This document shows, one piece after another, positions 6,884 to 29,003 of a stretch of DNA of 64,000 nucleotides. A model generated the notes under the pieces. That model did no database searches and was not told the DNA's origin. It worked only from the letters and a program-made list of their open reading frames with translations. Where the stretch lies: the NCBI GenBank assembly GCA_000442015.1, contig KE561145.1, forward strand, positions 1 to 64,000. Direction: 5' to 3'. Each line of letters begins with the position of its first letter. The first letter of the stretch is position 1. The translations under genes were made by a program, and so were the position numbers. The DNA comes from Rozella allomycis CSF55. Its lineage: Eukaryota.

Positions 6884-9238
6884 ATGAAAATAGATACCCG
6901 TGTTAAATATATTACACGCGAATTTTTGCAAAAAAATTGCTTGAATAACGGAAGAAATAAAATTAGTACTCTAGTTTTACGACCAAAACAGCCAACAGAT
7001 CCAAAGATAAAGGTAAAAAGCTTTTCTTGTTCTAAATAGTATATACAAAATCTAGAAGTTCTACCCGAACTAAATGAAATTGATTTTAGTGATAATATTA
7101 TAGAGAAAATAGAGAATATTGCTTGCTGCACAAAGCTAACAAAGCTATGCCTTAGAAATAATCTTCTTCGGAGTATCGATAATATTTTCCCATTGAAAAA
7201 TTTAACTTGCATTGACTTGTCAGGAAATTTGATAGAAAGAATACCAAGTGCCATTAAGCAGCTTGAAAAGTTACAGACCTTGAAATTGGCGCACAATAAA
7301 ATAGAATTGGTACTTAATTTTGCAATTAAAAAATTAGCTATCGGATTTTGAGCACTTGAAAGGACTTTGGAACTTGATGGAGCTTGATATTCACGATAAT
7401 CCTCTTCAAGGAATAAAATATTGGAGATATTTCATACTGTATCAATGTAGAAGTCTTTTATACTTGAATGATCAAGAAATTCAACAGCACGATAGAGAAA
7501 TATCATATGAAAGATTTGGGCGAGGTATTTGAATTTTCACGCGCTGAAATTTAGCTGAAAAAGAAATTCTACTTGAAAACTTTAAGAATGCAAAATGCGA
7601 GAATTTTAACATGGAAAAGCAATTAATTGATTTGAAAAACCACCAAATCAAATTAGAGGTTGAAAATAAGGATCTGAGAGAGGCGTTAAAAGTGTTTCAA
7701 TTGAGAATAAAAGAACTTGACGAAACTTTATCATTCGAAAAGCAAAAGTCGTCTCAAGAACATTCAAGAAGCGAAAAGCTAGCCATTCAGCTTACAAGGC
7801 CTGACAATCATAGTTCACAATATAATCGCGAAAATCTTCAGGCGACTTTAAATAAACTCAATTCGGTTCTTGAAGAAAAGGATAATGAAATTAAAAATTT
7901 GAAGATGGAAATTTCACATAAATTGTTCGATCAATCGTTGTTGAACCAAAATAACGAATCTAGCGTTTCAAAAGAGATCACTTCTTTAAAATCAAAAATA
8001 AGTGAATTAGAAAAAATAAATTCTGCATTAAATGATAAGTTAAAAATTTCTGAAGCAAAGCAACTTGATCTCGTTGGGACAAAGCTGGCATTGGAATCAA
8101 AAATTGATTTGGTTCTCAAAGCCTTGCCAATTGACAAACGCGATTTTTCATTTCTTCCCACTTTTATTAATGTCATAAATAAAGAAAATAATGAATTAAA
8201 GGAGCAAATTTTCAAGATGCAGCAATCGATTGCCACAAATGATCTAATTGAACAACTTGAAGACTCAAAGACAAAGAAAATGAATGAACATGAATCAGTG
8301 GATTCATTTTCATCTCCTACAATCAAAGAGCTACGAAAGCTTCGCCTGGAAATTTCNTAAATATATAGGACAAGATTTTTTTTTAAATGTATACAATTAA
8401 ATCAATAATCGTATTATTAAGGATGAGGGATCCACATCCAGAAAATTCGGAAACATGGATGGGGCTCGAGCCATGCACCTAGATGTCCTAAAGCATCTTA
8501 GTTTGCCACAAGACAACCAAGATATTTTCAGACTTTAAACCTAAAATTTCAAATTTTCTTTTTCATTTCTTCCCACTTTTATTAATGTAATAAATAAAAA
8601 AAATAATGAATTAAAGGAGCTAATTTGCAAGATGCAGCAATCGATTGCCACAAAAGATCTAATTGAACAAACTTGAAGACTCAAAGACAAAGAAAATGAA
8701 TGAAAATGTATCAGTCGATTCCTTTTCATCTCCTACAATCAAAGAGCTACGAAAGCTTCGCCTGGAAATTTCAAATTCACCAAAATTCGTGGATGCAATT
8801 AGCCAAACACACAATAACCCAAATACGTTAAAAGATAAATCAGATTTTTCGAGATTGAAAGAAAACGATTCTGTTGGAATTGAAGGTCAGGAGCGGATTC
8901 GAAAGGCGCAGCAACTAAAAACTCTAATTCATCAGAGAAAACAAAGGCTTTTGGAGATTCAAGGATTTATTCAAGATGCTAAAAGTGAAAGAATTGAAAT
9001 TCAACAAGAAATTGATAGATTAAAACTTATCAGAAATGAGCTTCGCAACGATGTGATAAATCATGGAGAAAAATCGACCATACTAGATAATGACATCCCC
9101 AAACGCGATTCTCATAGCATTAGTGATAACCATACATTCATTAAAGGTTCGAAAACCTTAGAGGGTATCGACACCATATTTTCTCCTGTGCCATTCGGTC
9201 CAAAACCCCGTTTTTTCTCACCGTCTAGCACATCATAA
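6884..9238 (+). CDS. N-terminal LRR plus coiled-coil protein (centriolin/LRRCC1-like); interrupted by an assembly gap and duplication at 8357-8772
   Basis: SDS22-type LRRs (FSDNIIEKIENI, LRNNLLRSIDNI, LSGNLIERIP) followed by a long coiled coil. Confidence 0.65.
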
Positions 9239-9341
9239 TAACATTTTACTGTATTAAATGATGAAATAAAAGGTACTTTTTTTTAAAAAAAAGTTAAAAA
9301 AATTTATTTAATAAGTAAATTTTTCTTCAAAACTTCAAGAN

Positions 9342-9860
9342 TACCCTAACCCTTTACCCTTTACCCTAACATACCCTAAACCCTAACATACCCTAAACCC
9401 TATCACTAAAGTCACGGAAATGGTGAAAGTCATTTTTTANATTAATATTGTGACACTACTGAATAAGATAGAATTTAAACTAACCCATCACCCTAACCCA
9501 TTACCCTACCCTAACCCTATTACCCTAAACCCTAACCCTTTACCCTAACATNTTAGTGATAATGTAAAAATATTTCCGAAAATTTTCGAATTTCGAATAT
9601 TTCCGAATTAATATTGTGACACTACTGAATAAGATAGTACTTAAACTAACCCATTACCCTAACCCATTACCCTACCCTACCCTAACCCTATTACCCTAAC
9701 CCTATTACCCTAAACCCTAACCCTTTACCCTAACATACCCTAAACCCTTTACCCTAACATACCCTAAACCCTTTAACCTAACATACCCTAAACCCTAACC
9801 CTTTAACCTCTACCCTAACATACCCTAAACCCTAAACCCTATCACTAAAGTCACGGAAAT
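9342..9860 (+). repeat. degenerate telomere-like (CCCTAA/CCCTAAA/TTACCC) array with repeated unique flanks, spread over three short contigs
   Basis: Direct reading; flanks attaatattgtgacactactgaataagatag and tatcactaaagtcacggaaat each occur twice. Confidence 0.9.
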
Positions 9861-11440
9861 NATTGTCATAAGTACGCCTCAACGGCAACAATCGCGTCTT
9901 TCGAGATGGACCGCTTTCCCAAAATCCCTGTCAACGCATGTCAACCCTTTTTGGAATCATGATAAGTGCGACCGGTAGGATGTCGGAATCGATGTCACTT
10001 GCCCCATGCATGAAATGTGAGTTGATGCTTTTGTAATTGCATAAATTCAAATTCTGGAGTTCATTGTTGACATCACAGATTTATTGTTAAACACACAACA
10101 AATCTAAATTGAGAAGATAATATGTGCATACATGGCAACTCGTCCATACGTACACCCGTTTGCGCGCAAACCTGAATGCATAAGGGATGCCGATCCCACT
10201 TGGCGACGAAATTTGCAGCAGGTTAAATAAGATATTGTCGCGATAATTCATGCTGTCTCGTCTATGTAATGAGGAATCGTAAGAGCGATCCCCTTTGTTA
10301 TTTTGATGGGTTAGCCACTTCGACCATTTCGTCATATGATTTTGAAGACGCACTGGCGAAATGGATGTCACCACCGCTCCAGAGCAGTGGATTCAATAAT
10401 GTGAAGACGGCACAAACACGCCGCGCGCGACCAAAAGTTTGTCAGTCTCATTAATCACCTCTTCAACGTGGCTTGTTCACACTATCGACACGTACCTTGC
10501 AGTCTTCTTCGGAAACCAAAATTATTGTAGGCGCCATCCTAGACAAATATCAGTACAATCTCCGCAGCAAGACGGACGTTCATTACGTTGGCGCAAACGG
10601 GCAGAATTTGATTGCATCTGAGAAAAGATTCATCAACTTGAAATATGTCTTAGACTCTTGGATTGTTTCAGTAAGTATTGATGTTTCCAACTTATTTGGT
10701 TTTTTGATTTCTTTTATTTCTTTTGTTGATTGGTTTTCGCGGTGGAATGAAGAAGTATACCGATTCTGGGGGCCTAAATGTTGTATTCGGACTTGCCTGA
10801 TGTTGCTAAATGATCTTCACTGCAATATATGTTTTTCATTTGGTGTGTTTGCCATTGTTGATAACGTGTTAAGACTTAAGATTAAAAACGAGGATCGCAG
10901 TGCTCGTTAACTTAACGGGCAGGTTTTCATTTCAAAATGCCTAAATATTAAAAATTATAAGAACTTCGAATATTACTGTTATCAATGATATAGTTTTTGT
11001 TACCGTACAATGCAAGAATAGGGTTACTCAGCCACAGGCAGACACCATTCGACAACCACACCGGTCAACTGTTTAAAGTGATAATGATGTATACGATCTT
11101 TAATATGGTGTCTCCTGGTGTCGCGGACGACCTTGCANTATTGGATATTTCCAGCTTTTCATTTATGTCACTTCTTATTTCACCTTCTTCATAATACAGT
11201 TCAGTAATAGAATCTTTAGAATTTTTCATTTTTAACTGGGAGANTTTTATCTCTATCTGTTAATGTAAGTTTAGTTTTTCATTTCGCAATTTAAGAAATT
11301 TCGATTTTTCAAATAACTTGGTTACTCGATTAAGCAATGTGACAATGCCAAATGATTGAATGCTGTTACTGACATGAACAAAATTACCATTTCAATCATG
11401 TCATGCTTATTTCCTGTCCTGAACATTATCCAGCCACCCA

Positions 11441-12988
11441 ATGAAAATAAGAGTTGACCTGGACAAACACAGAAAAATTTGGACCAAAATTTTTGACACG
11501 ACACTATACGGTTTTTTAGCTGCGGGAATATTTGGAGGAGTTTTTTTAGGAAGTTATTGGTTCGGAAGTAAGGCTAATATAACCGAAAATGATAAAACGC
11601 TAGATAAAAATGTTCTTGCAGAAAACATTTTGCCAATGAAAATAATGCTTTCTGGGGATCATGCATTACTTGAAGGTAATGTCTTTGAGCCCTCAAAACC
11701 GCAAATATCACCTTTTGTGGAATTGAATGGAATCTCTTTGTCAAAACCCGATGTTTCATATTCTTATCTTGATAAAGTCAATGAAGAAATAGCAGAGTCA
11801 AGTCACGCTCATGTATCCAAATTAATCGTGGAAGAAGATCATGTCACTCCATTTATTTCTGTATCATCTCCAAAACCTACAGTAAATCGCATAACTAACC
11901 TTAGCACCAAAAACGTTGAAAATGTCAGCCAAAACAAATTGGATAATCCACCGAAACCTATTTTCGTTGGCACAAACACAGTAAGAAACGGCCAAAGAAG
12001 GGAATTCACTTCCAATGCAAATGTGTTCAAAAATTATTATAAGAAACTTGAATGCCAAATTGCAGATGCTTTAAATGACAAATCTACTAAAACAACAACT
12101 CCTACCAAAGATAGTCTTAATCCAATTGCTCTGGAATCAGTACGTACCAAAGATAGTCTTAATCCGATCGCTCTTCAACCAGCACCTACCAAAGATAGTC
12201 TTAATCCAATCGCTCTTCAACCAGCAACCAAAGATAGTCTTGATCCGATTTCTCAGATGAAAATGAATAGAGGTTATTCGTATCTGAATCCTATTAGATT
12301 TGTTATCGCTGTTTTAGTCGGAATAGTCCTTAAAGTTAATGAATCCTTTATAAAGGCTATGTTAGGCAAGAAAGATCATAGAGATGTAGATTTGCCAGAT
12401 TTAGTAGATGAGCCCTTGACTTCACGCAATGTAGATGAAATTGTCCATAAAAACAAAGAAAGGAAGAAAAAAAGTCTTTATGAGAAAATAAGCTCATATT
12501 TTCAAAGAGTCAACAAGATTCCACGGCCACTATCGTCTTTGAAATATTCTGATCCCCATCAATTAGTCATGAGTTCAAATCAAAATAGCATTAGCAGCAA
12601 AAAAATTGAAGACTCCATTTCAAAATCGAATCGTTTTGAGTTTTTGAATTATTATGAAATTCTAGGTGTTTCTCCATTGGCAAAGCAGCATCAAATATCA
12701 TCAGCTTTTAAGAAACTTGCACTACGTTATCATCCAGATGTAAATATACTTTTTTGCACTAATTAGAAAAGCCGAGAAAACAATGATGAGTATTTCAAGA
12801 AAATAGTTGAAGCATACAATGTTTTGAACGATGATAAAAAGAGGGTCGAATATAACCAATTACTTCGCATAACAAACAAAAGTCCTATTGCAAGGGATAT
12901 TTTAGGGTATGGCGCCATTTTCGCTAGACTGTTTAATATTAAAAATAACTATTCCTTGCCCACTATTAAATTCAATGCTACAAAATAA
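11441..12988 (+). CDS. membrane-anchored protein with internal tandem repeats and a C-terminal DnaJ domain
   Basis: Hydrophobic N-terminal helix; NYYEILGV..AFKKLALRYHPD, then a 27-nt intron, then KSRENNDEYFKKIVEAYNVL. Confidence 0.75.
12101..12254 (+). repeat. coding minisatellite, about 3.7 copies of a 39-42 nt unit (TKDSLNPIALQPA)
   Basis: accaaagatagtcttaatcc-like unit repeated four times in frame. Confidence 0.9.
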
Positions 12989-13098
12989 ATCAAATTATTT
13001 GCAGATTTTATATTACATTATTTCATAAGCCACAAATCCATCAAAGTCACGTTTTTCGAATGAAAAAGGTACTTTCAGCCACCAAGCCACCATAAAAT

Positions 13099-13858
13099 AT
13101 GGGTCCAAAATTTTCTGTACTATTTTATTTTACTATTCTCTGTATTTGCGTTGCCTCAAGTCCTATAAAGCATGATTCAATGGCTCAAGCAAATGAAAAT
13201 ACAAGTAAGCTGTATCATACATTGGTATGTAGGTATCGAAATGCCGATTTGGGAATATCCAAAGCGAATTATATTCCCAGCGTTCAAAAGTAGTAAAGCT
13301 CAAAATGTGTTAAGCAAAATCCAATCCTTTCTTTCAAGGAAAGGGGTTTCAGAATCTATCAATCCAAATGACATCGGTACACACGAAGAAAGCAGTCACG
13401 AAAAGGTTTTGCCCCATTCATTATCTACGCCAGATATTGATTCTCTAAAAGATAGAGTACTCCAGAAAGATGGATTAGACGACAAGNTACTCCAGAAAGA
13501 TGAATTAGACGAGAAGAACATACAAAAAGTCGAAGCCCAACTTGATGGTATGAATAATGGAAGTGTACCACCTATGAATGCTAGTGTCCAAAGAGAGGAA
13601 AGTAAAGATACTCATATACCCAAAGAAAATTGCTGCCCTCGCGCAAATGTTAATGACAAAGTTCGTTTAAATAATGAATCAAATGAAATTCCACAAAGAA
13701 AAGACATAAATAATGANGACATAAATAATGAAACTATTGAAAATAAAAGCACCCTATACGTAGTCGGATTCACATTGGCAGCCCTTGTGTTTGTCAGCTG
13801 CGTTGCATTAGTTATTCGTAATTTCAAATACAAAAGCATGTTAAAATCGCATAAATAA
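13099..13858 (+). CDS. type I membrane/surface protein (signal peptide, low-complexity ectodomain, C-terminal TM)
   Basis: MGPKFSVLFYFTILCICVASSP joined by intron gtaagc...tgtag to an ORF ending LYVVGFTLAALVFVSCVALVIRNFK. Confidence 0.7.
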
Positions 13859-13879
13859 TAATAAAAACATGCTTCTTTA

Positions 13880-14679
13880 TTAAAATAGTTTTACTATTGA
13901 GTTTTTGTATAAGAGAATATATGATAGACCACTGGCCAATGTCGATGCACCAATCACATATTGTAAAACATATAACAATGCTGTATGGGATAAATCGTAT
14001 ACTTTAAAGAATAAAGTACCTCCAATAAGAGTAATTTGAAGAGCAGTATTCAACTAATTGCGAGTAAAACTAAGGCATACTTTACTAATCGTCAATGGCC
14101 TGATTTCAATTGAAGGAGTCTTCAAGTCAAAAAATTTTCTGATTGTTTTCTCTAAAGGTCAGACTATTTAGATTACCGGTGGAGTTAACATTTTGTACCT
14201 TAAATACAAAGTAGCACCTAATAGGCAAATATCTCGACCAATAATTAACGCTGTTAACCATGCTATCATAAATCTTAGANATGCTATAATAAATCTTAGA
14301 TGAATTGTAGTACTTGGGAGCAAACAAATTTTCCACAATGATAAAGTACAGCAGCTCATAAGTACTTTGTCGGCAAGAGGATCCAAAAATGTTCCCAGTA
14401 CTGTTTTCTGTCTAAACTTGCGAGCTATATATCCATCTGCATAAAATAAGAAGACTTTATTAACCATACTGCGTCGCTTAGCCCAGCAAAAACAAATCCT
14501 GTCAGGGCCAGAGGGTAGTTTTGATTCAAGATATTGTATGCAATGTAAGGAGATAAAATTAACCGTGCAGTAGTAAGTGCGTTTGGAAAAGTATATATAT
14601 TTTCTCTTTTTTTAAAGATTGAAAATGCCATCCTATTCTTTAAGATTAACTTTGATGAAAGAAAAGTATTGGACAACAT
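13880..14679 (-). CDS. CRD1: cardiolipin synthase (CDP-alcohol phosphatidyltransferase)
   Basis: ENIYTFPNALT, SDAxDGYIAR, LGTFLDPLADK, IIGRD, SKLNTALQ; has an N gap and a probable 1-nt insertion near 13930. Confidence 0.85.
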
Positions 14680-14768
14680 GATGGAATTTCTGAAAAACGG
14701 ACAACGTTTTTGGAATAGTTGCTTAATTATTTAAAAAGCTATTGTGAAATGATAATTTTGTTTATATT

Positions 14769-17599
14769 ATGACCAATATGAAAGACTCTCGTAAAATTTC
14801 CGTAGTAGTAGATAGCAATCGAAGGTTTTCAGTAATGCCTAATAGAAATCACAAATATAATGAGGGATTGCATGAATCTTCGTTGAACCTTGATACTACT
14901 TTTGATCATGTTAATGATGAATTTTCAAAGAATGTAAATAAATGGGTGAAAGGTGATAGATATATCAAAAATACTTGAAACAGAAACAAAAAGAAGAAAG
15001 GGGAATAGGTAATGTTGAAGTATGTATTAGAAAGAATTCATGGACGTTGAAGATGACAAAAGCGAAAACATGATTACAATGACATTTGCTGATTCACTAA
15101 GAAATGTACTCAAAGGAATTGATAATGAACAGTGGGCAAGTTCAGAATTAAGAAATAAGTTGGTACAAATGAAAGTTCTGTAAATAGAGGCGAATATCGT
15201 CCTTTCGGAAGTTGCAATGAGGTTTTCACCACAAATGGGAAATTTAATACAAAAAGATTTTAATTCCATAATTAATAGAATATTTGTTCACAATGTTTTG
15301 AATAGTGTAAAAACTCAAGCTGATTTGTGTCTGAAAAAATCGAGATTGTATTTTGAAAGTATTGAATTATATTTGTTGTCACGAGATTGTAATAAGGCAG
15401 CTGTTTTCAGTAACGAAACGAACGACGACAGAATTTGTTCATACTTTAGGATGCAACTTTGTGAATCGTATAAATATTTTAATAAACATTCTGAAAGATT
15501 AAAAGTTGGAAAGATAATAAAAATTTGTCGGCAAGAAGCATTGAATGGAATCAGAATAGAGCCGCCCTCAGAAAAAGAAAAAATGACAAAACAGTTAAAG
15601 GATGTAAACTTAGTTTTTGATCTTTTTAGTTAAGTTTAAAGTTATCATTGTATAAAAGCAAAGCTAATTTTGCAGTTCTAGAAGAAGAAATAAAGAAATA
15701 CAAATTTCAAATACCGACAGCACCCTTGCAAAAGGATGTTGAAGAGGAAGAAATTAAAGAGTTGAAAATGGAAGACAATAAAATATTAATGATTGACCAA
15801 AGTTGGATTGAAAGGGATTTAAAATTTTTAACTAGTAGAAACAATGAGTCAGTAAACAAAATCCAGCAAGTGAAGAATGCCAATCCGTTGTTGATTGATG
15901 GGCATGTTTTTAGTAAATTTATGAAACAAAATGTAGCACTTCAATCCACCGACTTTGATTCTTCCATATTTGAAGTGGGCGATTTTATTTCAAAAGTATT
16001 TGAATCAGAACAAAAAGTTGAAATCAAAACAGAAAAACTAATTAATATTAAAGAAGACAAAATTGTAGAAGATGAAATGAAAGAAAGACCAAAAACTAAA
16101 AGAGAAAGATATTTGAGACCCTTAACCCACAGGACTGGGAAATTATCTAATCTAGATTTTGAATCTATAGAACTCAGAGTAATTTTGTTGCTAAATGAAG
16201 AGTAGCCGAAAACTAAAGATTCAATTGACAAGAAGATTGAAAATGTTCCAGATTCACCATGGAAAGAATCGGTAGTTGAAGGGAATGTTCTTAGATTAAT
16301 GGATTCAAGACTATCAAATAGACAACAACAAGAATCCATAGATTTATCGCCTAGCGATTTAATAAAAATTGATTTTATAAATGACACATCTGGAAATGAC
16401 GTTTCCTTTTCTATTTCTGATTTATTGCCTGGTATTTTTACATTTATCAAAAAGATTAGAAAGCGATGAAGAGATTTCGCAAGATCTTTGTGAAATATTT
16501 AAGCATTTTACAGAATCGGCGATGGATTCCTTGTTGACGTTAGAGGAAGATGAAGAAAATCAAATTTGCTCACCAATTTTAAAAGAAAATATTAGCGATT
16601 ACTCCATGAGATTTTTTAAAGGAGAAAGATTTGTTCCAGAAGATCAAATCAGGAAACTCAAAGATCGCAAGGACCAGGGTGAAGAAAGAAACAAGGACCG
16701 TAACAATGAAGAAATTAAAGGAAATGAATCTAAAAATAAATTAAAAAATATAAAAATTAAGACTCCAAAAACTGGGACGTTAGAAATTGAGGATTACTTC
16801 AAGTATCTTCAATTGCATAGCAATGATTTTCTTGATTCTTTAATTCTTGATCGATTTCTAGTTGACATGGCAGAAGAAACAAAAGAACTTTTGAAAATGC
16901 AAAAGCAACAAAAAGATTACGAATTAGAAAAAAAGATTAGAGAGGAAGAAGAAAGGAAGCGTAAAGAAAGAATTTCAGAGATGCTTCACTTTGAGAAAGG
17001 GAAATGGAATTCAAAAATCATCGATTACTTTGATGAAATAAAATCTAAAAGGTTTCCTAAAGTTTTCTTAATTTTATCTAGTCCTTTTTCAATCCAAGAG
17101 AGATTGGAAAGAATTTGGCAAGTTCTTGAGCTGGAAGACTGTGAAAGAATTTCATTGGCTATCAAATTTGGTAATCACGACTTTGATGGTAATAAATATT
17201 TACACCTCATTATTGTAAATGCTTTAAAATGCTTGGAAGAAATCGTTTCTCTTATCATTAAAAGAGAGGCACTCATGAATGACATAAAGGAATTTGAGGT
17301 TGAAGGGTCAAATCCAAGGTATTTTAATTTGTAATTTTAAATTAGGTATCTTATTCCATTCATGTCAATGTAGACGTTTTTATTACAAACAATACAGCTT
17401 TTTACAAGAATCAAACATTCGGCAAACGTTACTGCTTCAACTTGAAGAAATGCAGAACGTTCTAACTCCCTTGATCGAAAGATTTCAAAATACGCATCAT
17501 GAAATAATACGCTATAAAAGACAAAATTATCTTTCAAAAATGAAAAACGATTATCTTCAAATTCTTCATTTACTTGAAATAGAAAGGAGAAGCACTTAA
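14769..17599 (+). CDS. CCDC87-like coiled-coil protein
   Basis: C-terminal IQERLERIWQVL..ERISLAIKF..KRE..FEVEGSNPRRF resembles the CCDC87/MAP65-like domain. Confidence 0.6.
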
Positions 17600-17677
17600 A
17601 GTAAGAACTTATGTCTTTTATAACCAATGAATAAATCGAATCACAAAATAGTTTTAATTTCATATCAAATTTTAGAT

Positions 17678-19573
17678 TTATTGTGTAGAAATGAGCCTAG
17701 TAATTTTCCCAATCCCCTTTGTCCTTCCTTCACGAAAGAGTAGTCTTTTTCCAAGTTGCATGTATTCAGGCTTTTTAACGAATCTGAAGCGTACAAACGA
17801 TCGATCGCCTGTCCTTAACACCTTTGACTGTTCTTTGTCACTGTTGGAAACAATCTCCATTATAGTTGCTGTTTGTCGAACAGTCCCACAGTGAATCATC
17901 GTTTGATAGCTGGGCTTAATTGTTGTCGAATGATACAATATAAGAACTTCAGCCTCGAATTCTATTGCAACGTACCCACAAAAAACACTAGGGTACCTCA
18001 AACAACCAGGGTCACTAATGTACTCTGCCAAAGATGGAGACGGACATGGTTTTGGTAATCCTTGTTTGTCAACCACCACCATTCCTTTTCTCAATTGATG
18101 TCTCTTTATTTTTTTCAAAGCTAACGTCGCACACTGGCCAGCAACGGTAGAATTAACATTAACTCTTTTCCTGTGAATAGATTTTATTATGCAAGGGAAA
18201 AATACTCCATGTTCATCAGGCCCAAAATAAAGCGTTTGGCCAACATCAATCTTTCCAGATTGCAAGTTCCCTGAAATCACTGTTCCAACACCCTATTAAG
18301 TATAGAGTAATAAACTTACAGGCACTGAATAGGTTTCTGTTAATTGATACTCAACAGGATCTTCACTGTGGTATTCTTGATATATTGGAAGCAAATTAAG
18401 AAAGCACTTTAAAAGATCCAAGCCAGCACCTGTCACATTAGAAATTTGAAATATCGGACATAATCTAATTTAGAGTTACTTCTGCGTGTTTACTTTTCAG
18501 TGACTAAATTATTTACTACTAAAATCAAATCATGGATTGATTTTATAAAGACCGGGGTTTTCTTGCAACCAGGGCTTTTAACCATTTTCGCCAATTGTTT
18601 CAACGTATCATCCAAAACATTAGCTGGGCACATATCAACTTTTGTAACAACTATGAAAAATGGAACGTTCAACGCAACAGCTAAACCTACATGCTCTTTT
18701 GTCATTCCAACCACCCCTGCATTCGATCCTACTATAAGCATAACAAAATCTGGTGAATATCCAGTCATCCCGAATACACTAAGAATTCATTTCAAAATAA
18801 TTACGTCGTCTTTAAATACTTTTCATGGCCGGCAAGATCAATGAACGTTAAAAGTTTAGACGACTGCATTGACACAGACTCCCAACTCATTTTCCGCAGG
18901 GACACAATCAAACTCTCATCAGCAATTTTCTCAGCCTGATTTATTTCCCCTGTTTTATTTTCTAATTTTTCTATGACTTTTTCAATTGTTTCATTTTTCC
19001 TTCCAATTATACTATGTGTTGTTGCTGGACCAACAACATTCCCATGCTCATCAAAGCCAAGTATTTCCATGCCCACAGAAGAAGTTCTCCCTGTTTCAAT
19101 TTCATGCGGATGTTTGAAAAGTGTAACACGAGCTTTACCACGCCAATTTAAATGTAATAATTACCATTACCCGTCATCCTCCATTCCTTTGGTTATCACA
19201 CCCAAAGTGGTGCTTTTTCCTGCATCAACATTTCCCACCACTGCGACTCTAACCTCTAAATTCAAGTCTGTGACACTGTCAGCCTTGTAACGACAAAGAA
19301 TGACGGATTGTTTTGGACCTTTGTCATCAACTGATGTGTAAATAGGAGTCGCCACAAAATTCAATTCTTCTGACACAACCTTGATATTTTTCAAACAAGC
19401 TAGCAACGAAGATTCGGTAAATGATTCGTCAGCATCAACAAAATTAATAGGCAAAAGAAATTCACCGCGAACGAGATTTTGTTGAAAGAAGTCCTTTGTT
19501 TCCTTGTCGGGGTCACGCTTTAAAATCTATATCTTGTTAATTTGTTGTGATATACCTGAATAGCATCGTTCAT
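17678..19573 (-). CDS. GTPBP1: GTP-binding protein 1 (translational GTPase)
   Basis: [62 protein letters not shown]. Confidence 0.93.
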
Positions 19574-19709
19574 CTAACTGTGGCTGGGAGTCTAGCCATC
19601 AAATCAATAACATTCAATCGAAATAAGATTTCAAAAAATTCATTTCATCGGTAGATTAAAAAAATAAATTTATTTACACAGTACACTACACTAAACAGAG
19701 GCTGCCCTA

Positions 19710-20183
19710 TTACGCCATCGTTAAAGGGCTATTCTGGCGTATTATTTTACATATTTTCCTCTTCTTAAAATCAATTATCAAAAATCTTATTAGCAAAAAT
19801 ATGTCTATTGTGAAAAATATTGCACTAAGTCCAGCCATAATTCCGTCTGCTTTAATCCACCCGTTAGACGCAAACCAATCATGCTCTAAACTATTAATTC
19901 CAATGTATTGAGCCGAAATAATATTTAGTAAGATGATGAGATCTAATAATATTGTTAGTAAAATTAAATAATTGCATTGAAGCCTCTTTCGTTTTAGAAT
20001 AAAAGACGCCAAATTCAAAATCAAGCCAAAAATGCATACCAAGCAAGTAAACCATCTAGAATATACTTCAAATATCTCAAAAGGTTCCCAAAACTCTAGC
20101 TTGTTGATGAAGGCAAACATTGCATAGCCAGAATTACTTACGGCGAAGAAAGTAAACGAAAGGATATTTAAAAAATGGGCCAT
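19710..20183 (-). CDS. small four-TM membrane protein, unknown function
   Basis: Intronless 157-aa ORF with about four hydrophobic helices. Confidence 0.55.
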   Translation of the reverse strand: MAHFLNILSFTFFAVSNSGYAMFAFINKLEFWEPFEIFEVYSRWFTCLVCIFGLILNLASFILKRKRLQCNYLILLTILLDLIILLNIISAQYIGINSLEHDWFASNGWIKADGIMAGLSAIFFTIDIFLLIRFLIIDFKKRKICKIIRQNSPLTMA

Positions 20184-20290
20184 AATGCGAGGTAGTTTCG
20201 ATATATCTTTTGTAACCTTTGATTTTGATTCCACACATTCACTCTTCTTACAAGCTAAAAAGTCCATGCCTCTTTTCGTGTGGCTTGGGT

Positions 20291-21517
20291 ATGAAATCAA
20301 AGGCTTTACGATCTTTTTCTTTATTTGGCATAATAATATCTTGCCTTGCAGGAATAACAACTTTTTATCTGTATCTGTATATCCCCTACCTAAAGCCTAT
20401 TCAGACAACTTCCCAAATTCAAACAAATGGCTTAGAAGCAGTTTTGAACACTTCAATACATCACACACAGGAACTATATAGCTTGCATTATACAAAAACG
20501 GGATATAGTCCTCCGCGGTTAGCATTTTTATTAATGGCACATAACTACAGTTCAGTAGAAGGACTATTCAAGATCTTAAAAGTACTTTACACTCCATATC
20601 ATTATTTCGCAATACATTTTGACGAGAAAGTGACTCAGATAACATATCAAGGATTTGTCACTTTATTTAAACTGCATTTCGGTTATCCAACAAACGTACA
20701 AATCAGCCAAGACAGAATAAATGTTAAGTGGGGCGAGTTTAGTATACTAGAGGCAGAATTACTATTGCTAGATATGGCTTTCAAATGGAACAAAGAACGC
20801 CCAGCAGACGAAAAATGGGAAAGGTTGTTAATTTTGTGTGGGCATTCATTCCCGTTGCAAACTATTCAAAGCATTGAATTTGCGTTTTATGCGATGAACA
20901 AAAATATGAATATTCTATGGGACCTTGAAGGGCCAAAGAAAACATGTGAATATGGACAGCGCTATGGTGAATATTGCAAGAGAACGTCAGCACGGTGTGC
21001 GAATCCTGAATGCACTAAAATGACACACTCTTACAAAGACTTTGTTATTTATAAAGGTTCTCAATGGGTTTCACTTACTTTTGAGTATGTCAATTACATT
21101 TACGGGGAAGGGGCTGAGGACTTTCATGGGTTAATTAACTTTTTTCAAAAATCAATATTTGCACCTGAAGAATTGTTATTTCAAACCAGTATAATGAATT
21201 CTCGGTTTAATACGACCGCTGTGACTGGAGAGGTTGGAAACGAAAGCGCTGGATCGTCTGTTCCATATATGTTCAAAACGTGGACAGACTGCAATTCATA
21301 CCCTAATCCACGCCCCGGAGCCTCACCGTGCACACTTGGGAAGAATGATTTGAGCTCGATATCTAAAATGTACAAAGATGGATACCTGTTTGCAAGAAAG
21401 TTTAATCCCCTGGACGAACTCCATACCAAAATAGAAGGAAATCTAGTTCAAAGAATTGTAAATTCACATAGCGCTAAACAAGAAAATGCACAAATGGTTC
21501 AAGAAATATTGCAATAA
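20291..21517 (+). CDS. GT14 glycosyltransferase (core-2/I-branching / xylosyltransferase-like), type II membrane
   Basis: RLAFLLMAH, IHFD, VKWGEFSIL, KGSQWVSLT, PEELLFQT, LFARKF. Confidence 0.88.
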   Translation: MKSKALRSFSLFGIIISCLAGITTFYLYLYIPYLKPIQTTSQIQTNGLEAVLNTSIHHTQELYSLHYTKTGYSPPRLAFLLMAHNYSSVEGLFKILKVLYTPYHYFAIHFDEKVTQITYQGFVTLFKLHFGYPTNVQISQDRINVKWGEFSILEAELLLLDMAFKWNKERPADEKWERLLILCGHSFPLQTIQSIEFAFYAMNKNMNILWDLEGPKKTCEYGQRYGEYCKRTSARCANPECTKMTHSYKDFVIYKGSQWVSLTFEYVNYIYGEGAEDFHGLINFFQKSIFAPEELLFQTSIMNSRFNTTAVTGEVGNESAGSSVPYMFKTWTDCNSYPNPRPGASPCTLGKNDLSSISKMYKDGYLFARKFNPLDELHTKIEGNLVQRIVNSHSAKQENAQMVQEILQ

Positions 21518-21531
21518 AATATAGAATGTTT

Positions 21532-22188
21532 TTATTGTTCATTTTCTTGTTTTTTTGGTTCATCATTTTGAATCGTTTCACCTTCAAGGCGTTCAACTTG
21601 TGATTCCAGTGTATCCAGCTGTTGTTTAAAACTTTCTTTAACTTTTTCTTTAATTTGATTGCACTTTTCTTTAATTGCTGTTTGATCGAAAATCTGATCG
21701 GGCAATAATTCTGCCGGTCTGAAGAATAAACTGGGCATAGCGTTTGTCGACAGAAAGTTTGAATAATTGTCATATCTTTTCTCTAGATCTGCCGTCTGTC
21801 ATTAACTAAATTCACTTTAATTACAATTGTTTGTTCTAATTGAAGAGTTTCAGATTTTCTGGCATCTAGAATACGGGATCGTCTTTCTTTTCGTTCTTTC
21901 TCCATAATAATTCTTGTTTGTTCTTTTTCTTGTGCGAGTTTTTCTTTCAACTTTAGATCGATTTCCTTTCTTTTGTTATCAACGCCTATTGTCTGATTCA
22001 GATCCTGCTTAAATTTTGATAAAGTGCCTAGCATAACACCCATCATTCTTTTGTTTCTTTTTATATCTATGGGGTCATTTTTAATCCTTTTCTGTATGAC
22101 ACTAGAATATGACTCTTACTGTTAAACTCTCTGATTCTGCATTTCCTAGTCTCTTTGGAGCGTTTTCAATAACTGAAGGCAAAACCAT
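21532..22188 (-). CDS. PNN: pinin/SDK/memA domain protein
   Basis: KRNKRMMGVMLGTLSKFK; NFLSTNAMPSLFFRP. Confidence 0.8.
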
Positions 22189-22231
22189 TATGATAGAAAC
22201 ACTAAAGTTACTTTCTTACCCCTGTCCTCAA

Positions 22232-23132
22232 ATGCCTCTTGTCATAATAACTGGCTTTCCCAAATCCGGAAAAACAAAGCGCGCAGAACAGTTAAAAAAA
22301 TGGGTATTAGAGAACAAAGGTAAGTTTGTTTGGGGCCAAAATCTCGATAAAGTTGTACTTTTGAATGAAGAATTTTTGAACATCAATAAAGATCTATATA
22401 ACAGTAAATTTTATTATCAACATTTTAATAGATTCAAATGACGAAAAAAAGGTACGAGGCGCTCTTGTAGGAGCCGTAGAAAGATACCTTAATAAGAAAA
22501 CGTTAGTTATTTGTGATTCTATGAATTACATAAAAGGGATTCGCTATCAAATGTATTGTATTGCGAGATCTATTGGAACTCTCCAGTGTGTCGTTCACAT
22601 TTGCACATCTAGCGAAAATTGTTCAAAATTTAACTCGATCGACAACACCTACGACAACGAGACCCTCAAAAATCTAATCAGTAGATATGAAGAACCGAAC
22701 GAATTCAATAGATGGGATAAACCCCTCTTCAATGTTCAAGTAGACGATTTAGATATTCCTTGCGAAAAAATAATGAAGTGCCTTTTCGAAAAAGAAGCGC
22801 CATTACCTAATCTCTCTACGATATCAGTAAGTTCAATTTTTTTCATTGAAAAGAAACCTGCTATGGATAATGTTAAAAACATCGATCAAACTATTCAAAA
22901 GGCGACGAAAACGGTACTGGAGAGACTAAAGGATGATCCTTTAATTCAAAAGATTGACATTGAAAATGCATCCATTCCTGTTTTATTAAATGGAAATAGA
23001 GTGACTCTTATAGAAATGAAAAGACATCAACATCAGTTCATGAAATTGTACAATCATTTGCTAACATCAAACATGGATGATCAGACGGCTTTAAATTCTT
23101 TTGTTGAATATTTAAATTCTCAGTTTAAATAA
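22232..23132 (+). CDS. KTI12: Elongator-associated protein KTI12
   Basis: MPLVIITGFPKSGKT, DSMNYIKGIRYQMYC, RYEEPNEFNRWDKPLF. Confidence 0.93.
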
Positions 23133-23357
23133 ATTAGCATTCAATTTTTATTTTTAGGCCAACTAATTTGGCTTTTAGTTTTGTCATTTGTGGGGTTTTC
23201 AAAACTCTCAGAGGTTACTACTTGCGGTATTGTTACGGCAAGTAGTGCTATTTTTTATTGCCGTGTATAGAAACTAAAAAGAATGAATTGGGCTAATAAA
23301 GTATCATTAGCGTTTTAATTTTTCAGGTCGGCACATGTGGCTTTTCTGGTCTAAACA

Positions 23358-24180
23358 ATGGGTATTAAATGACACTTTTAGTTATCAAGGTGCTTTGTTT
23401 AGTAGGATTTTTTCAAGACTCTTTGGTGAAAAAGAATATAGAATACTTATACTTGGATTAGACAATGCAGGAAAGACGACAATTCTATACAGACTGCAGG
23501 TAAAACTTATTACCATAATGAAACATTAGCTCGGAGAAGTTCTAAGTACAATTCCAAGTAATTTTTTCATTGTATGATTACAAAGCTATTGGATTTAATA
23601 TGGAAGTTCTTCAATACAAGAACCTAAAGTTTCAGGGTACTCATAGATATTATACTTCAAACAGTTTGGGATCTTGGCGGTCAATCGAGTATACGACCGT
23701 ACTGGCGTTGCTATTACGCCAATACTCAAGCCATTATATATGTGGTGGACAGCACAGATAAAGCCCGATTATCAGTTTCAAAAGCTGAGCTGATTTCAAT
23801 GTTGGAAGTAATTTACATCAGTTCTAAACACAAAGGAAGAAGAATTAAAGGATGCCGTTCTTTTAGTATTTGCAAATAAACAAGATTTGAACGGAGCAAT
23901 GTCCGTAGCTGAAGTTTCAGAAGGCTTGGGATTATCACTTTTGAGAAATAGACAGTGGTGCATATTCAAGACAAGTGCTATTAAGGGTGATGGTCTCACT
24001 GAAGGACTAGATTGGTAACTTTATACCAGAAGCATCAAATCTAGGCTTGTAAATGCAGTAACCGGTAATACACAAGAAGCTATAAACATTGCACCTGCAG
24101 TAGAATCAGTTGATCAAAATAATGACACTGAGGTTGTTGAGCAAGTCGAAGAACCTAAATTGGAAGTACCAACAGAATAA
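23358..24180 (+). CDS. ARL1: ARF-like GTPase ARL1 with an acidic C-terminal extension (6 introns)
   Basis: [45 protein letters not shown]. Confidence 0.93.
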
Positions 24181-24304
24181 ATTGATATTACATAAAACTC
24201 TTATCAAAGATTATATTTATAAAGTAGCAAATATCAATTCTTATTTGGTTTCACATATGCCATCAAATCTATAAATAGTGTCACGATTTTCCGATATTTA
24301 TTCC

Positions 24305-25126
24305 ATGCCTTCGCAAGATCATCATGATAACGTTGATAGTTCTTCCTATACAATATCCCATTTAATGGAGGGTATTAAAATATAAATATACATCATAGAA
24401 ATCGGAAAAAGATTATCCCTTCGATCAGAGAGAGACGACCTTGTACAGAAAAACATTATAAAAGGCAAGTTTTAGAAATCCAAGATAAAAGGTAGACGAT
24501 AAAAAAATATCTTCTTCGATTGTTCAAGCCAAATTGTCACTAGAGAAAGAAAAGGAAAAGGAAAAACTCAATGGAAGAATCCAAAGGAGACCTTCCAAAG
24601 CAGAATTAGAGGAAAGAAATATTTTAATCCGTATGAGGATCATTTATCAATGATAGAGGACACAACCAGCACAGACCCATTAACCATTCGTAGAAAATCA
24701 TTTGAATTTAGACAAACGCAGTTAAAATCTTGCCTAAGAAAACGAATGGATAAAAACGAACTTCAAGAGAGAAATATTTTGAAAGGTATCGACTATCATT
24801 TGCTTAAAATAGACACAAAAACGGATCCAGCATTGGCATCAGCTTCGGCTAAACTAATTCGCGCACAGCTAGAGAATTCTTTAGAAAATAAAATGCAACA
24901 TAGACCAACTCCTGAATCTATTGCCAAAATCTTGGGATTCAAAGATGTTGTAGAGGTTTTACCTACCTACAGAGCTGATGACTACAATAGAAAAGTTGAT
25001 GACAATGTCACATTCAAAATGCTAACCCCGAAACTAAAGCAAGAAATAAGAGAAGAATTAAATCAATACAAGAGAGAAGAGATGATAGTTCATGAAGAAA
25101 GTGTAGCTAATACGGCTTTTCATTAA
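24305..25126 (+). CDS. RPEL-repeat, PP1-binding protein (Phactr/Bni4-like)
   Basis: RPSKAELEERNIL-type repeats; C-terminus VEVLPTYRADDYNRK..LTP..IREELNQYKREEMIVHEES..T.FH. Confidence 0.8.
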
Positions 25127-25185
25127 AGCTTAAATAAACTTTTTGCGCTCTTCATTTTCTTTTTTCTCAAACGTTGAGACCAAAC

Positions 25186-25908
25186 ATGTCCACAACGACA
25201 TTGAAAATTGGAAAAACTAAAGCCGTTATGTCCTTAAAGTTGATCTCATCAGAAAAACAAAACTATTTAAAAATGGCTTCATCCATCAACCCGCGCTTGG
25301 AAATAATCTTAATAACACTGCTTAGAAAAAGGTTACACCCTTTAGGATGGAAAATATTTCAAAGTGAGGATAGCCAATGCACCATATCCAATATTTACTA
25401 CAAAAATTTAAAGCTAGGAATAATTGTTGACTTTAAAATAAAGGGAGTTCCTTTGCCAATACTGAATGAGGCTATAAATAGGGTGGAATTTCAAAAGGCT
25501 CTAAAAATGAAATTGGACAAACTAATTAAGATTGAAATCAATTCTTTAGTGAAAGCAAGGGCTCATCTATTTTCAAAATTTGGTAACAAAAATGGCCGGA
25601 CAAAATTAGATAATGACCGTTTAAATCTATTTCTCTTTGACATTATGGTTGAAAGTATGACCGAGTTGGCGATGACATGTAATATTGATACCAGCAAGAA
25701 TGATATTACGAATGTTCTAAGACGACAATTTGGCGCCACATGCTCAACTGATTCATTTGACTTTATCTGCAGCTCATCCGATGGGTTTGAATCGATGGGC
25801 TTATCTGATGAATTTAACTCTGTAGTTCTCACCGAGGACGAAAATGATTTTGAAAGTGTTTTAAGTGACGATAAAGACGCCTTTAAAGAAATATCATTTG
25901 ATGAATAA
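25186..25908 (+). CDS. hypothetical protein, acidic C-terminus
   Basis: Intronless 240-aa ORF that fills the gap between neighbours. Confidence 0.5.
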   Translation: MSTTTLKIGKTKAVMSLKLISSEKQNYLKMASSINPRLEIILITLLRKRLHPLGWKIFQSEDSQCTISNIYYKNLKLGIIVDFKIKGVPLPILNEAINRVEFQKALKMKLDKLIKIEINSLVKARAHLFSKFGNKNGRTKLDNDRLNLFLFDIMVESMTELAMTCNIDTSKNDITNVLRRQFGATCSTDSFDFICSSSDGFESMGLSDEFNSVVLTEDENDFESVLSDDKDAFKEISFDE

Positions 25909-25953
25909 ATAGACTTTGTTAATGTAAATTTTTGTCTCTCAGTCTCTTTTTTA

Positions 25954-27079
25954 TTACTTTGAATTCCATAGTCCTAAGAGAATTCCAATGATTACAATGA
26001 TTATTGAGAGTAACACTGAAAAGGGACCAAAAGTCGAAATAATGCCTAAATTAGATAAACGATGTAAAATTACAGAATGAAAGGAATGCTGGAATTGAAA
26101 ATCTGGCCATTTTATTCAAATCTTCTAATTGGAATGCTACAGTCGCAATGACATTATCTCTATGATTTTTAGTTGAAATAGTTTTTAATAACAAGACTAT
26201 CTCCGTTAATGATATTATTTCGCGGAATTTATTCTTTATCGGAAGACAAAAATCAGGTTCGCCGTTTAGAGAAATAATTTGGAGCTGTAATTGCTTTTTG
26301 AAGGCCAATATTTGATTAGCAGTAATAGAATCTTTTAATAAGTCCACTTTTATCGATTCCATCAATTTAAAGTAATCTTTTTTGAATTCGTCCAAAATCA
26401 AGTCAAGAAGATCCTTCAACTCTGTAAGAATTATAGATGCACAGTTTACCCAATTTCGAAGACAAGTTCAGCTCAGATAAAATATCCAAATTGGTGAAAT
26501 TAAACGTAATTAAAAGGTTATGAGATGACGAATATTGAAACAATTTTCCATGCTGGTCAATTATACTCCTCCAGTTTAAGGAATTTGTGAATAACTATTT
26601 TGAAACTATCATGAGTTTACATGAATAATAAATTCTTTTTCATCATCGTTTGGATTTTCAAGATGCAGCCATGCGGCGTTTTCTGGATTGTCAATTAAGG
26701 TTATGAAAGAAAAGTGCCCGGAATCAAGCTCTTCAAAACTTTCTGCTTGCAAAAATCCTGATATGGGCGTATAAAATGTTATCCTATTGTATTTTAGGGT
26801 GACGTTTTGAGATTTTGGCATAGAAATGCCCATTCCGTCTTTGAAAGCCTTAAGAGATTCCACTGCCCATTCACGCTTGATACGTGAATCGGTAAAAACA
26901 TTTTTATTCAAAACATCGACTATTGGTTCATTTGATACTAAATTCTGGATTGCAGCGGTTAAGGGGAAGGAGGAAGGATCAGGAGTTTGAGACAGAAAAT
27001 TTGGAAATTTAATGTGAGGATGTTTAGAGAAAGATGATTTGGGTCTATTTGGCGAAGAATCCAAAGAACTTTCAAGCAT
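25954..27079 (-). CDS. divergent CorA/Alr1/Mnr2-like divalent cation transporter
   Basis: RITFYT..AESFEEL..F..LI..AWLHLENPNDDE N-terminal motif; two C-terminal TM helices; no GMN motif. Confidence 0.6.
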
Positions 27080-27141
27080 TAAAATGAAACAACCAAAATT
27101 CTGAAATTTATGAAAATAAAATTGAAAAGAAAAACATTAGA

Positions 27142-29003
27142 TTAGGACTGTCTAAACCAATAAACTAATTGTTCGGCGGATATTCTTTGCGAGGGATTTG
27201 GATCTAGCATTTTTGTGATTAGAGTTAAAAGTTCAGGCGATCGATCAACTTCGAAGGGTATCTGAGAAAAATCACCCGTCCGCAGCTTTCTCCATTCTTC
27301 ACCTTCGGAAGGTAATTCGATGTTTGAAGCGACTTCTAGAGCAATCAATCCAATGCTATCTTAAATAATTAGTTAATTTTACCTAAATATATCTGCAGGT
27401 TTATCGTAAAAGCCTTCAAGAATTTCAGGCGCGATATAAAATTTGTCACCTTCCGTGTCTACTGTGCTCAACTTTTCAACTCAAATGTACTATTTTACCT
27501 CGGAATCTTGACAAGAAAGGCCAAAGTCTCCTATCCTGAATCGATAGTCGCCGTCAATTAATATATTGGCGGGTTTGATATCGAAGTGAATGACTCCCGA
27601 CTGATGAATATGATAAATTCCCTACTTTCCGACTCAGTACATTATTACCTCTGCCAAGTCCGAAAGGATTCTGTATATTTCTTGTTCTGAAAAAAATCCG
27701 CCCTGCAGAATTCGTTTGTTCATTAAGGTTTCTAATCTAAAAATTTCCTAATACATTCAAAATTACGTTCCATTTGGGTATAATTCTGTTTCGATGTAAA
27801 GATAGCCATATTGTTCCCAGCTAGATAGTATTCTGACAATGTTTGGATGTCCACAAACTAACCAGAGATTTTCGACTTCTTCAAGATGTTTCAGCCTAAT
27901 TTTTGTATGACTGACCCTGGTTACCTGTCACACAACCCCTGAAATGGAGTTCGAGTTTTCTTTACAGNCCCCTGAAATGGAGTACGAGTTTTCTTTACAG
28001 CCGAAAATAAGCCATCGTCCCTTCGCCTTGTTTTATAGACATCGGCAAAAGAACCACTACCAAGGGACTCTACTATTTCGTAATGTGTAAGAAAATAGTC
28101 CTCCTTGTCATTGAAATCGCAATTCAAGAGTTCGTTCCGATCTTTCTGGGAGAAAAAGTGTTTATCGAGTATGTGGGGAAACATAGTTCGCCAAATAAAG
28201 ATTGACGAAGAAACGCCTCGCATTTCAGAAGAAAAGTTTTGCTTCTCATCGTTACGAGTAAAAAGTAATAAAGGAGACATTGCCATTTCGTTCTCGTCAT
28301 TATCGTTGTCATCAAATATCATGGAATTTCTGTCATCGTCTTCCCTTATCGGTGATGAATAAAGATTAAACGATTTTCTTTGGTCTAAAGGCGACGAAGG
28401 TGAGGCTGGTGATTGTTGAGGATCAAAGGGTGGAGATGACGATCTGACGTATAGAGGAGTTTGAAAAATATTATGTGCATGTCCAGGATGCGGAGTACTA
28501 GGATTAGGAGAACCATCTTCATCTGTTTGCTCTTCTTCTATTCCTGGCCTTCTTATTGCTTGTGACTCAAAAACATCTTCGACCCACTTGTTATTCTCTG
28601 GGGCTTTTGATAATAGCGAGTTCCTTCTCGGCGTACCAATACTCTGTTTAATAGTTGATTGCACAATCTGTGGTGTATACTGCAATAAAACTTTGCTGTG
28701 CATTTTCTTTGATGGTGTATTCGGTGTTGGAGTAGAAGCTTCTGAAGTCTTTCCAAGTAATCGCGTTTTCTTGGACAAAAATCCCGTGGATCGGAACGCT
28801 AAAGGATCTGGCTTAATTCCTTTCCATGTAGGTGTAGCATCAGGTGATATATTATTACTCGGCATTGAAAGGCGTCTTGCAAAAGGACTAGCACCAGATA
28901 TCTGCGAGCAGGTATTTTCCTTATTTTCCCAAAATAATTCTGAATCTTTTCCTTTGTTAGAAAACGGCGAAAACTCGTCTGTTGCTGGTTGTGTTAACGT
29001 CAT
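27142..29003 (-). CDS. WEE1: Wee1/Myt1-family kinase
   Basis: LGSGSFADV, YLYIETELYPNG, HFDIKPANILI, EGDKFYIAPE, ELPSEGEEWRKLRTGDFS. Confidence 0.9.

Follow-up and report, generated by a model that had tools for sequence, protein, structure and literature searches.

The stretch analysed here, referred to as the window, comprises positions 1–64,000 of contig KE561145.1 of Rozella allomycis CSF55 and carries on its forward strand a CCDC87-like gene whose coding sequence is interrupted, directly before the last exon, by 55 nt (17319–17373). As the preliminary description of this DNA had proposed, the 55 nt divide exactly into a 27-nt and a 28-nt GT-AG unit joined at AG/GT, the junction reading TAG/GTAT, and both units start with GTAT and end with TAG. 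Judging from the sequence, the interruption probably represents two minimal U2-type introns, each complete, that abut without an intervening exon. The features of the locus are as follows.

14769–17599, + strand: CCDC87-like gene with several 26–30-nt introns; start uncertain, at 14769 (our gene finder) or 14835 (public protein P0017)
17083–17318, + strand: coding stretch 5′ of the interruption (P0001), ending in phase 2 within an Arg codon after S-N-P
17319–17345, + strand: unit 1, putative mini-intron of 27 nt, GT..TAG, with two in-frame TAA codons (17332, 17338)
17343–17349, + strand: internal junction TAG/GTAT, with a zero-length exon between 17345 and 17346
17346–17373, + strand: unit 2, putative mini-intron of 28 nt, GT..TAG, whose terminal TAG is an in-frame stop if retained
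17331–17373, + strand: alternative 43-nt GT-AG intron using an internal GTAATT donor, which would add four residues
17374–17599, + strand: last exon, 74 codons plus stop, homologous to the CCDC87 C-terminus and absent from P0017

Removal of all 55 nt joins the two parts of the phase-2 Arg codon (SNPR-RFYY) and leaves the frame open to the stop at 17597–17599, in agreement with the earlier statement that the whole interruption must go to give SNPRRF. Excision of unit 1 alone leads to the TAG at 17371–17373, again as had been predicted, while excision of unit 2 alone leaves both TAA codons in place. A ciliate-type code (TAA/TAG = Gln), under which removal of unit 2 would suffice, was dropped because long standard-code open reading frames with Pfam matches end at TAA or TAG and the public proteins match exactly when read in the standard code. 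Of all the GT/GC-AG pairs around the site, six bring the frame back, and only the 55-nt span and the canonical 43-nt span retain both S-N-P and RFYY; a 28-nt intron with a GG end (17319–17346) would likewise reopen it. There are no N letters within 3 kb of the site, the nearest being at 14280.

The assignment of the gene rests on homology. P0001 shows 35–39 % identity to three homologs, found with this upstream exon, one of which (P0004) connects to CCDC87-named proteins of chytrids and mammals, and the similarity extends across the conserved C-terminal region (89.5 bits against the homolog profile). A Pfam search with P0017 returned no match, and a search of the ESM Atlas gave leads below 0.9 only. 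The last exon aligns with the matching C-terminal part of P0004 over 62 ungapped residues (E value 3e-5), and its 74 open codons are reached in 0.2 % of 20,000 shuffles. When 20 splice readings were scored against a profile of seven homologs, removal of the 55 nt ranked best (89.5 bits), followed by the 43-nt intron (85.2) and the 28-nt GT..GG intron (84.8), with the unspliced form and removal of unit 1 alone at 51.0 and 50.3 bits, respectively. The last exon is therefore needed, since the truncated forms reach only 50–51 bits, and a true protein end at the TAG, which the preliminary description had left as a possibility, is disfavoured by the homology of this exon to the CCDC87 C-terminus. 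The S[DN]PxRFF motif, which is kept without a gap in the 55-nt reading, favours that reading, although homology separates removal of 55 nt from removal of 43 nt only narrowly.

The public protein P0017 is identical across the upstream exon but ends unspliced within unit 1, leaving the conserved C-terminus out of the annotation; it may derive from the same genome and is not independent. Over window positions 14835–17334, P0017 has introns of 41–82 nt where our model gives 26–28 nt, and public annotation seems to be biased against tiny introns. Two further CCDC87-like proteins without names, P0003 and P0005, terminate one residue past S-D-P, as would be expected if their genes carried an intron at that codon and it had been left unspliced. 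No homologous locus for testing the intron position was found in metagenome contigs. Comparison with one RNA run (word share 0.00) gave only short low-identity pieces over window positions 8000–27900 and no joint at the site, a result that speaks neither for nor against splicing there.

Introns of the size of the two units are the rule in this genome. The spacing between GTA and TAG peaks at 26–29 nt in 328 kb examined without a gene model. Using our own gene finder, trained on 728 kb (approximately 6 % of the 11.9-Mb assembly) and counting introns in genes scoring above 40, we obtained 715 predicted introns, of which 641 measure 26–31 nt, six measure 32–35 nt and none measures 36–44 nt, a distribution to which the length prior of the finder contributes. 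The consensus is GTA(A/T)...(T/A)AG with little further signal; no clear branch-point motif was found in the predicted introns, which show a weak excess of TNA(C/T) at −9 to −6. The two Rozella S23 introns of approximately 30 nt and without conserved motifs described in the available text of PMC6349667 agree with this class. U1 and U2 are both found in the genome (the U1 match, at 69 bits, falling just below the cut-off of 69.5), and both have pairing sequences of the usual kind. SF1, Slu7 and Prp18 are also present; a reduced spliceosome was thus not found for the five parts tested. With their GT-AG ends and the U1/U2 machinery in the genome, both units fit U2-type (major) spliceosomal introns.

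The site scores of the two units lie within the normal range, and 27 and 28 nt are modal lengths. Compared with predicted single introns, unit 1 has its donor at the 6th and its acceptor at the 67th percentile, and unit 2 at the 7th and 32nd. Shuffling the interior of the 55-mer with its ends fixed (n=200,000) produced two GT-AG units of 26–31 nt in 0.6 % of cases and such units meeting at TAGGTA in 0.09 %. A GT...AG stretch of 26–31 nt lies directly 3′ of 35 of the 641 single predicted introns, so this loose motif alone means little; its strict form follows three of the 641, this site included. A second and weaker two-unit match (27+30 nt, junction CAG/GTT) lies at 27372–27428 on the + strand of the window.

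The genome-wide enrichment that the preliminary description had proposed as a check was found. The pattern GTAW, a 26–30-nt unit, TAG/GTAW, a 26–30-nt unit and TAG has 186 matches in the whole assembly against 42 in the reversed sequence, and off-register units of 33–37 nt give 6 (reversed, 55); matches overlap within chains of units and are neither independent loci nor locus counts. A looser first version of the pattern gave 256 versus 158. Two strict junctions in a row occur 79 times across the assembly, compared with three times in reversed sequence and once off register. At the fetched loci, many of which were chosen for their pattern matches, we found 41 chains of 3–12 abutting units of 26–32 nt each, and none in reversed sequence; 36 are free of N and five contain it. 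The longest (L138 1705–2044; G000:C719, approximately 35204–35543, + strand) has 12 abutting units of 27–29 nt. Many chains are placed between adjacent codons of conserved proteins, such as topoisomerase II (TOP2, confirmed by Pfam), and one lies inside what is presumably the P-loop of a dynein. Without any knowledge of chains, the gene finder made 57 calls of at least 50 nt, of which 12 tile exactly into units, where shuffles lead one to expect 0.18; three of the 12 are on contig C500, which was picked blind. A chain-aware version returned 22 chains, 642 single introns and 49 other long calls.

Neighbouring units in the longer chains resemble each other more than the 99th percentile of random intron pairs in 36 of 132 pairs and stand at or below the 90th percentile in 71 of 132, with the caveat that the junctions were required in finding them. 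The chains also change in composition from first to last unit (G from 0.21 to 0.08, C from 0.07 to 0.18), as in L138, L139, L068, L071, L072, L085 and others. This gradient does not amount to sequence-specific pairing, is not seen in the two-unit calls (4/12) and might stem from removal in a set order or from the chain being recognised as a whole. A metagenome scan for chains in other organisms yielded at least 120 stretches, of which 80 were listed, and does not show absence; among those 80, micro- and minisatellites and coding repeats were seen, and one chain candidate (L207) was rejected as it has no exon-like flanks.

Whether Rozella also has long single introns was examined with Pfam in 43 long calls having at least 22 residues on both flanks, five of which had both flanks in one family. 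The two tiled calls among these leave no profile positions missing: in CCT, the profile runs from 163 to 167 over 59 nt with three residues between, and in TOP2, from 381 to 380 over 117 nt. The three untiled calls leave profile positions missing and resolve to shorter forms, namely a 27+27 chain for the 75-nt call in CFAP58, a 29-nt GT-TG intron for the 62-nt call in AMP deaminase and probably 27 nt for the 45-nt call in prolyl oligopeptidase. Several untiled calls above 100 nt have flanks from different families and resemble fusions of adjacent genes. The longer interruptions that are open to checking read as exact tilings of 26–31-nt units; the other 38 of the 43 calls have no Pfam resolution, and some of them may therefore be long single introns. 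The AMP deaminase gene (G000:C500:51200-51228, − strand, L026) needs a 29-nt intron ending in TG, as the 62-nt AG-ended alternative would delete 11 conserved residues, and for the prolyl oligopeptidase intron (window 54220–54246, − strand) 27 nt with a non-AG end reads better than a 45-nt GT-AG intron. The genome seems to use non-AG intron ends at 27–29 nt.

Taken together, we favour as the probable explanation that the two minimal introns are removed stepwise by a length-limited spliceosome that defines introns across approximately 28 nt; the earlier proposal of recursive splicing stands as a candidate supported at the level of DNA. The spliceosome would pair donor and acceptor over approximately 28 nt and handle longer spans poorly, so that one unit would be excised, the RNA re-joined and the other unit then excised. 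Nothing in the sequence fixes a 5′-to-3′ order of removal: either unit could go first with the same messenger RNA (mRNA) as product, because both donors and both acceptors pre-exist in the precursor. Half-spliced RNA would carry a premature stop and be either finished or degraded. The arrangement may have arisen when an existing intron was duplicated in situ and the copies then diverged; at 17319–17373, duplication is not shown because the two units are dissimilar, although the 36 of 132 neighbour pairs that are clearly related in longer chains speak for such an origin. Intronisation of an exon is not supported as an origin, because the conserved motif runs ungapped across the junction. A stronger version of the model, which we hold to be possible and put forward tentatively, would set a hard upper limit on length near 32 nt, with all longer introns, the present one among them, being obligatory chains of minimal introns removed singly and growing only by tandem duplication of whole units, and with the G-to-C gradient setting the order.

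A number of points weigh against stepwise removal of two units. The donors of both units are weak (6th and 7th percentiles) and that of the 43-nt intron is stronger (34th). The similarity of the two units is at chance level, with 26 % of random intron pairs scoring as high. The empty range at 36–44 nt is partly a product of the length prior, the pattern matches are not independent, seven of the 12 tiled calls come from two genes of one contig (C611), and C611, C36, C589 and C556 were all fetched for their pattern matches. A G-rich start and C-rich end are seen in 33 of the 36 N-free chains of at least three units, not all of which are independent. At the protein level, the 43-nt and 28-nt GG readings score only 4–5 bits below the 55-nt reading, and a loop of 14 residues (43-nt form) fits the 13–15 of the homologs better than one of 10 (55-nt form). 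Both gene finders, the chain-aware one included, took the TAG as the end of the gene, and the coding log-odds of the last exon are −2.3 in its frame (−25.5 and −38.4 in the other frames).

We consider it unlikely that the 55 nt are taken out in one step between the outer GT and AG, with the internal junction a relic of duplication or a minor alternative site. Single long introns show a composition polarity like that of the chains, the spliceosome looks conventional and the 38 long calls lacking Pfam resolution leave room for such removal; however, the units have diverged here to random similarity and yet hold TAG/GTA in register, just over half of the chain neighbour pairs (71/132) do not exceed the 90th percentile of similarity between random introns, and the five long calls that Pfam resolved include no untiled long intron. 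Nor was RNA structure that might shorten the intron found: pairing of the outer sites is absent both here (z −0.07) and in the chains (mean z approximately 0 in 31 chains; mean rank of own-end pairing 0.49 in 24 chains). Removal of the single 43-nt intron, by which the protein gains four residues, is less likely again. This intron is canonical, in frame, provided with the better donor and compatible with the homologs in loop length at little cost in profile score, but it would be alone in a length range holding none of the 715 predicted introns (a count that depends on the prior), has a good TAG at its own 15th base, requires a gap in the S[DN]PxRFF motif and leaves the exact 27+28 tiling to chance (0.09–0.6 %).

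The remaining alternatives appear more doubtful. That unit 1 is the sole intron, so that translation stops nine codons on at the TAG and the frame beyond it is a recent relic, agrees with the preference of both gene finders, with the low coding score of the last exon and with P0017, which also lacks that exon and ends unspliced in unit 1; nevertheless, a chance frame of 74 codons is rare in shuffles (0.2 %), and the exon is collinear with the homolog C-terminus, a match worth 39 bits, making such a truncation improbable. An intron of 28 nt with a GG end, after which the rest of unit 2 would code for nine extra residues, we judge a distant prospect: the downstream frame is open through all 55 nt, the reading reaches 84.8 bits and non-AG ends seem to occur at this length, but a perfect TAG stands one base earlier, and the loop would grow to 19 residues against 13–15 by an insertion in a conserved motif. 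Least credible is an assembly artefact placing two allelic versions of one intron side by side. The assembly does contain several N-containing duplications of 21–33 nt, and N occurs in five of the 41 chains; the site, however, has no N near it and two units unrelated in sequence, and the other 36 chains are without N, with chains reaching 12 ordered units.

Elsewhere in the window, short duplications surround single N letters at 13456–13516, 13702–13731, 14260–14300 and 27932–28002, as if two alleles had been joined there during assembly. Tandem repeats of a degenerate TACCCTAA type at 9355–9835 are telomere-like, contig-internal and located between N gaps. A CPSF100 gene neighbours the CCDC87-like gene; it shows 97 % identity to a protein assigned to R. 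allomycis, and the next species has 37 %.

Tiny-intron genomes with length-dependent splicing are known from nucleomorphs and ciliates (PMC5014332, PMC13685798) and from myxozoans (PMC13644364). As far as the available text of these sources goes, they share with Rozella a very narrow length class, weak branch and pyrimidine signals and the usual U2, and lower splicing efficiency is cited for nucleomorph introns a few bases above the mode (PMC5014332); the word 'recursive' is absent from the main text of all three, and their available text describes no chains of units. Our literature search, with supplements excluded and subscription papers mostly outside its reach, turned up no paper on introns made up entirely of minimum-size units and none combining recursive splicing with tiny introns, and a fungal intron survey that includes Rozella (PMC8476143) makes no mention of tiled introns in its available text.

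Recursive splicing through zero-nucleotide exons is described at ratchet points in Drosophila and vertebrates (PMC8605326, PMC13149111, as far as available). The Rozella site is reminiscent of these in that an acceptor is followed at once by a donor (AG/GT) inside the intervening sequence, and stepwise removal would give the same mRNA as one cut. Here, the AG is directly followed by GT within sequence that appears, from homology and with a 4-bit margin over the 43-nt reading, to be absent from the message, and by length and site scores each segment would be a spliceable intron for Rozella. In contrast, ratchet points typically lie in introns above 10 kb and involve a cryptic recursive-splicing exon (RS-exon) of approximately 50 nt with its own donor, as these sources describe, whereas the Rozella interruption totals 55 nt, consists entirely of minimum-size introns whose order of removal may be free and, with 28 nt after the junction, has no room for an RS-exon. 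It also differs from stwintrons, in which the outer intron has one of its splice signals interrupted by an inner intron and removal has a forced order (PMC6616335, PMC7138796, in the text available): the two abutting units are intact, no splice signal is interrupted and no GT starts inside the first donor or either AG, a statement made for the donor and acceptor types, the branch element relevant to the [L] type being weak here.

The closest parallels are fungal, namely the 375-nt intervening sequence of Cryptococcus neoformans BOT1, removed recursively as 210 + 165 nt (bioRxiv 10.1101/224170), and two cases in Schizosaccharomyces pombe, one of them in a 336-nt intron (bioRxiv 10.1101/226894). 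According to the accessible parts of these reports, they likewise consist of two complete introns around a zero-length exon, and 'abutting U2 introns excised by recursive splicing' are named as a type in the available text of PMC6616335. Those cases number one or two per genome and are demonstrated at the RNA level, with BOT1 units above 100 nt, whereas the Rozella units measure 27–28 nt, recur genome-wide in chains of up to 12 and are predicted from DNA. The interruption thus appears to work like zero-nucleotide-exon recursive splicing while being neither a strict animal ratchet point nor a stwintron. Recursive splicing is usually viewed as a rare device of very long animal introns; if our interpretation is correct, it would be the routine route to any Rozella intron above approximately 30 nt, at the smallest possible scale. 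One organism would then allow tests of two questions, namely which factors define the length window within which introns are recognised and whether whole introns duplicated in tandem become new functional introns. The present site, having unrelated units, would be the simplest substrate for reverse transcription PCR or a minigene, and the 12-unit L138 chain is a candidate on which the order of removal could be followed.
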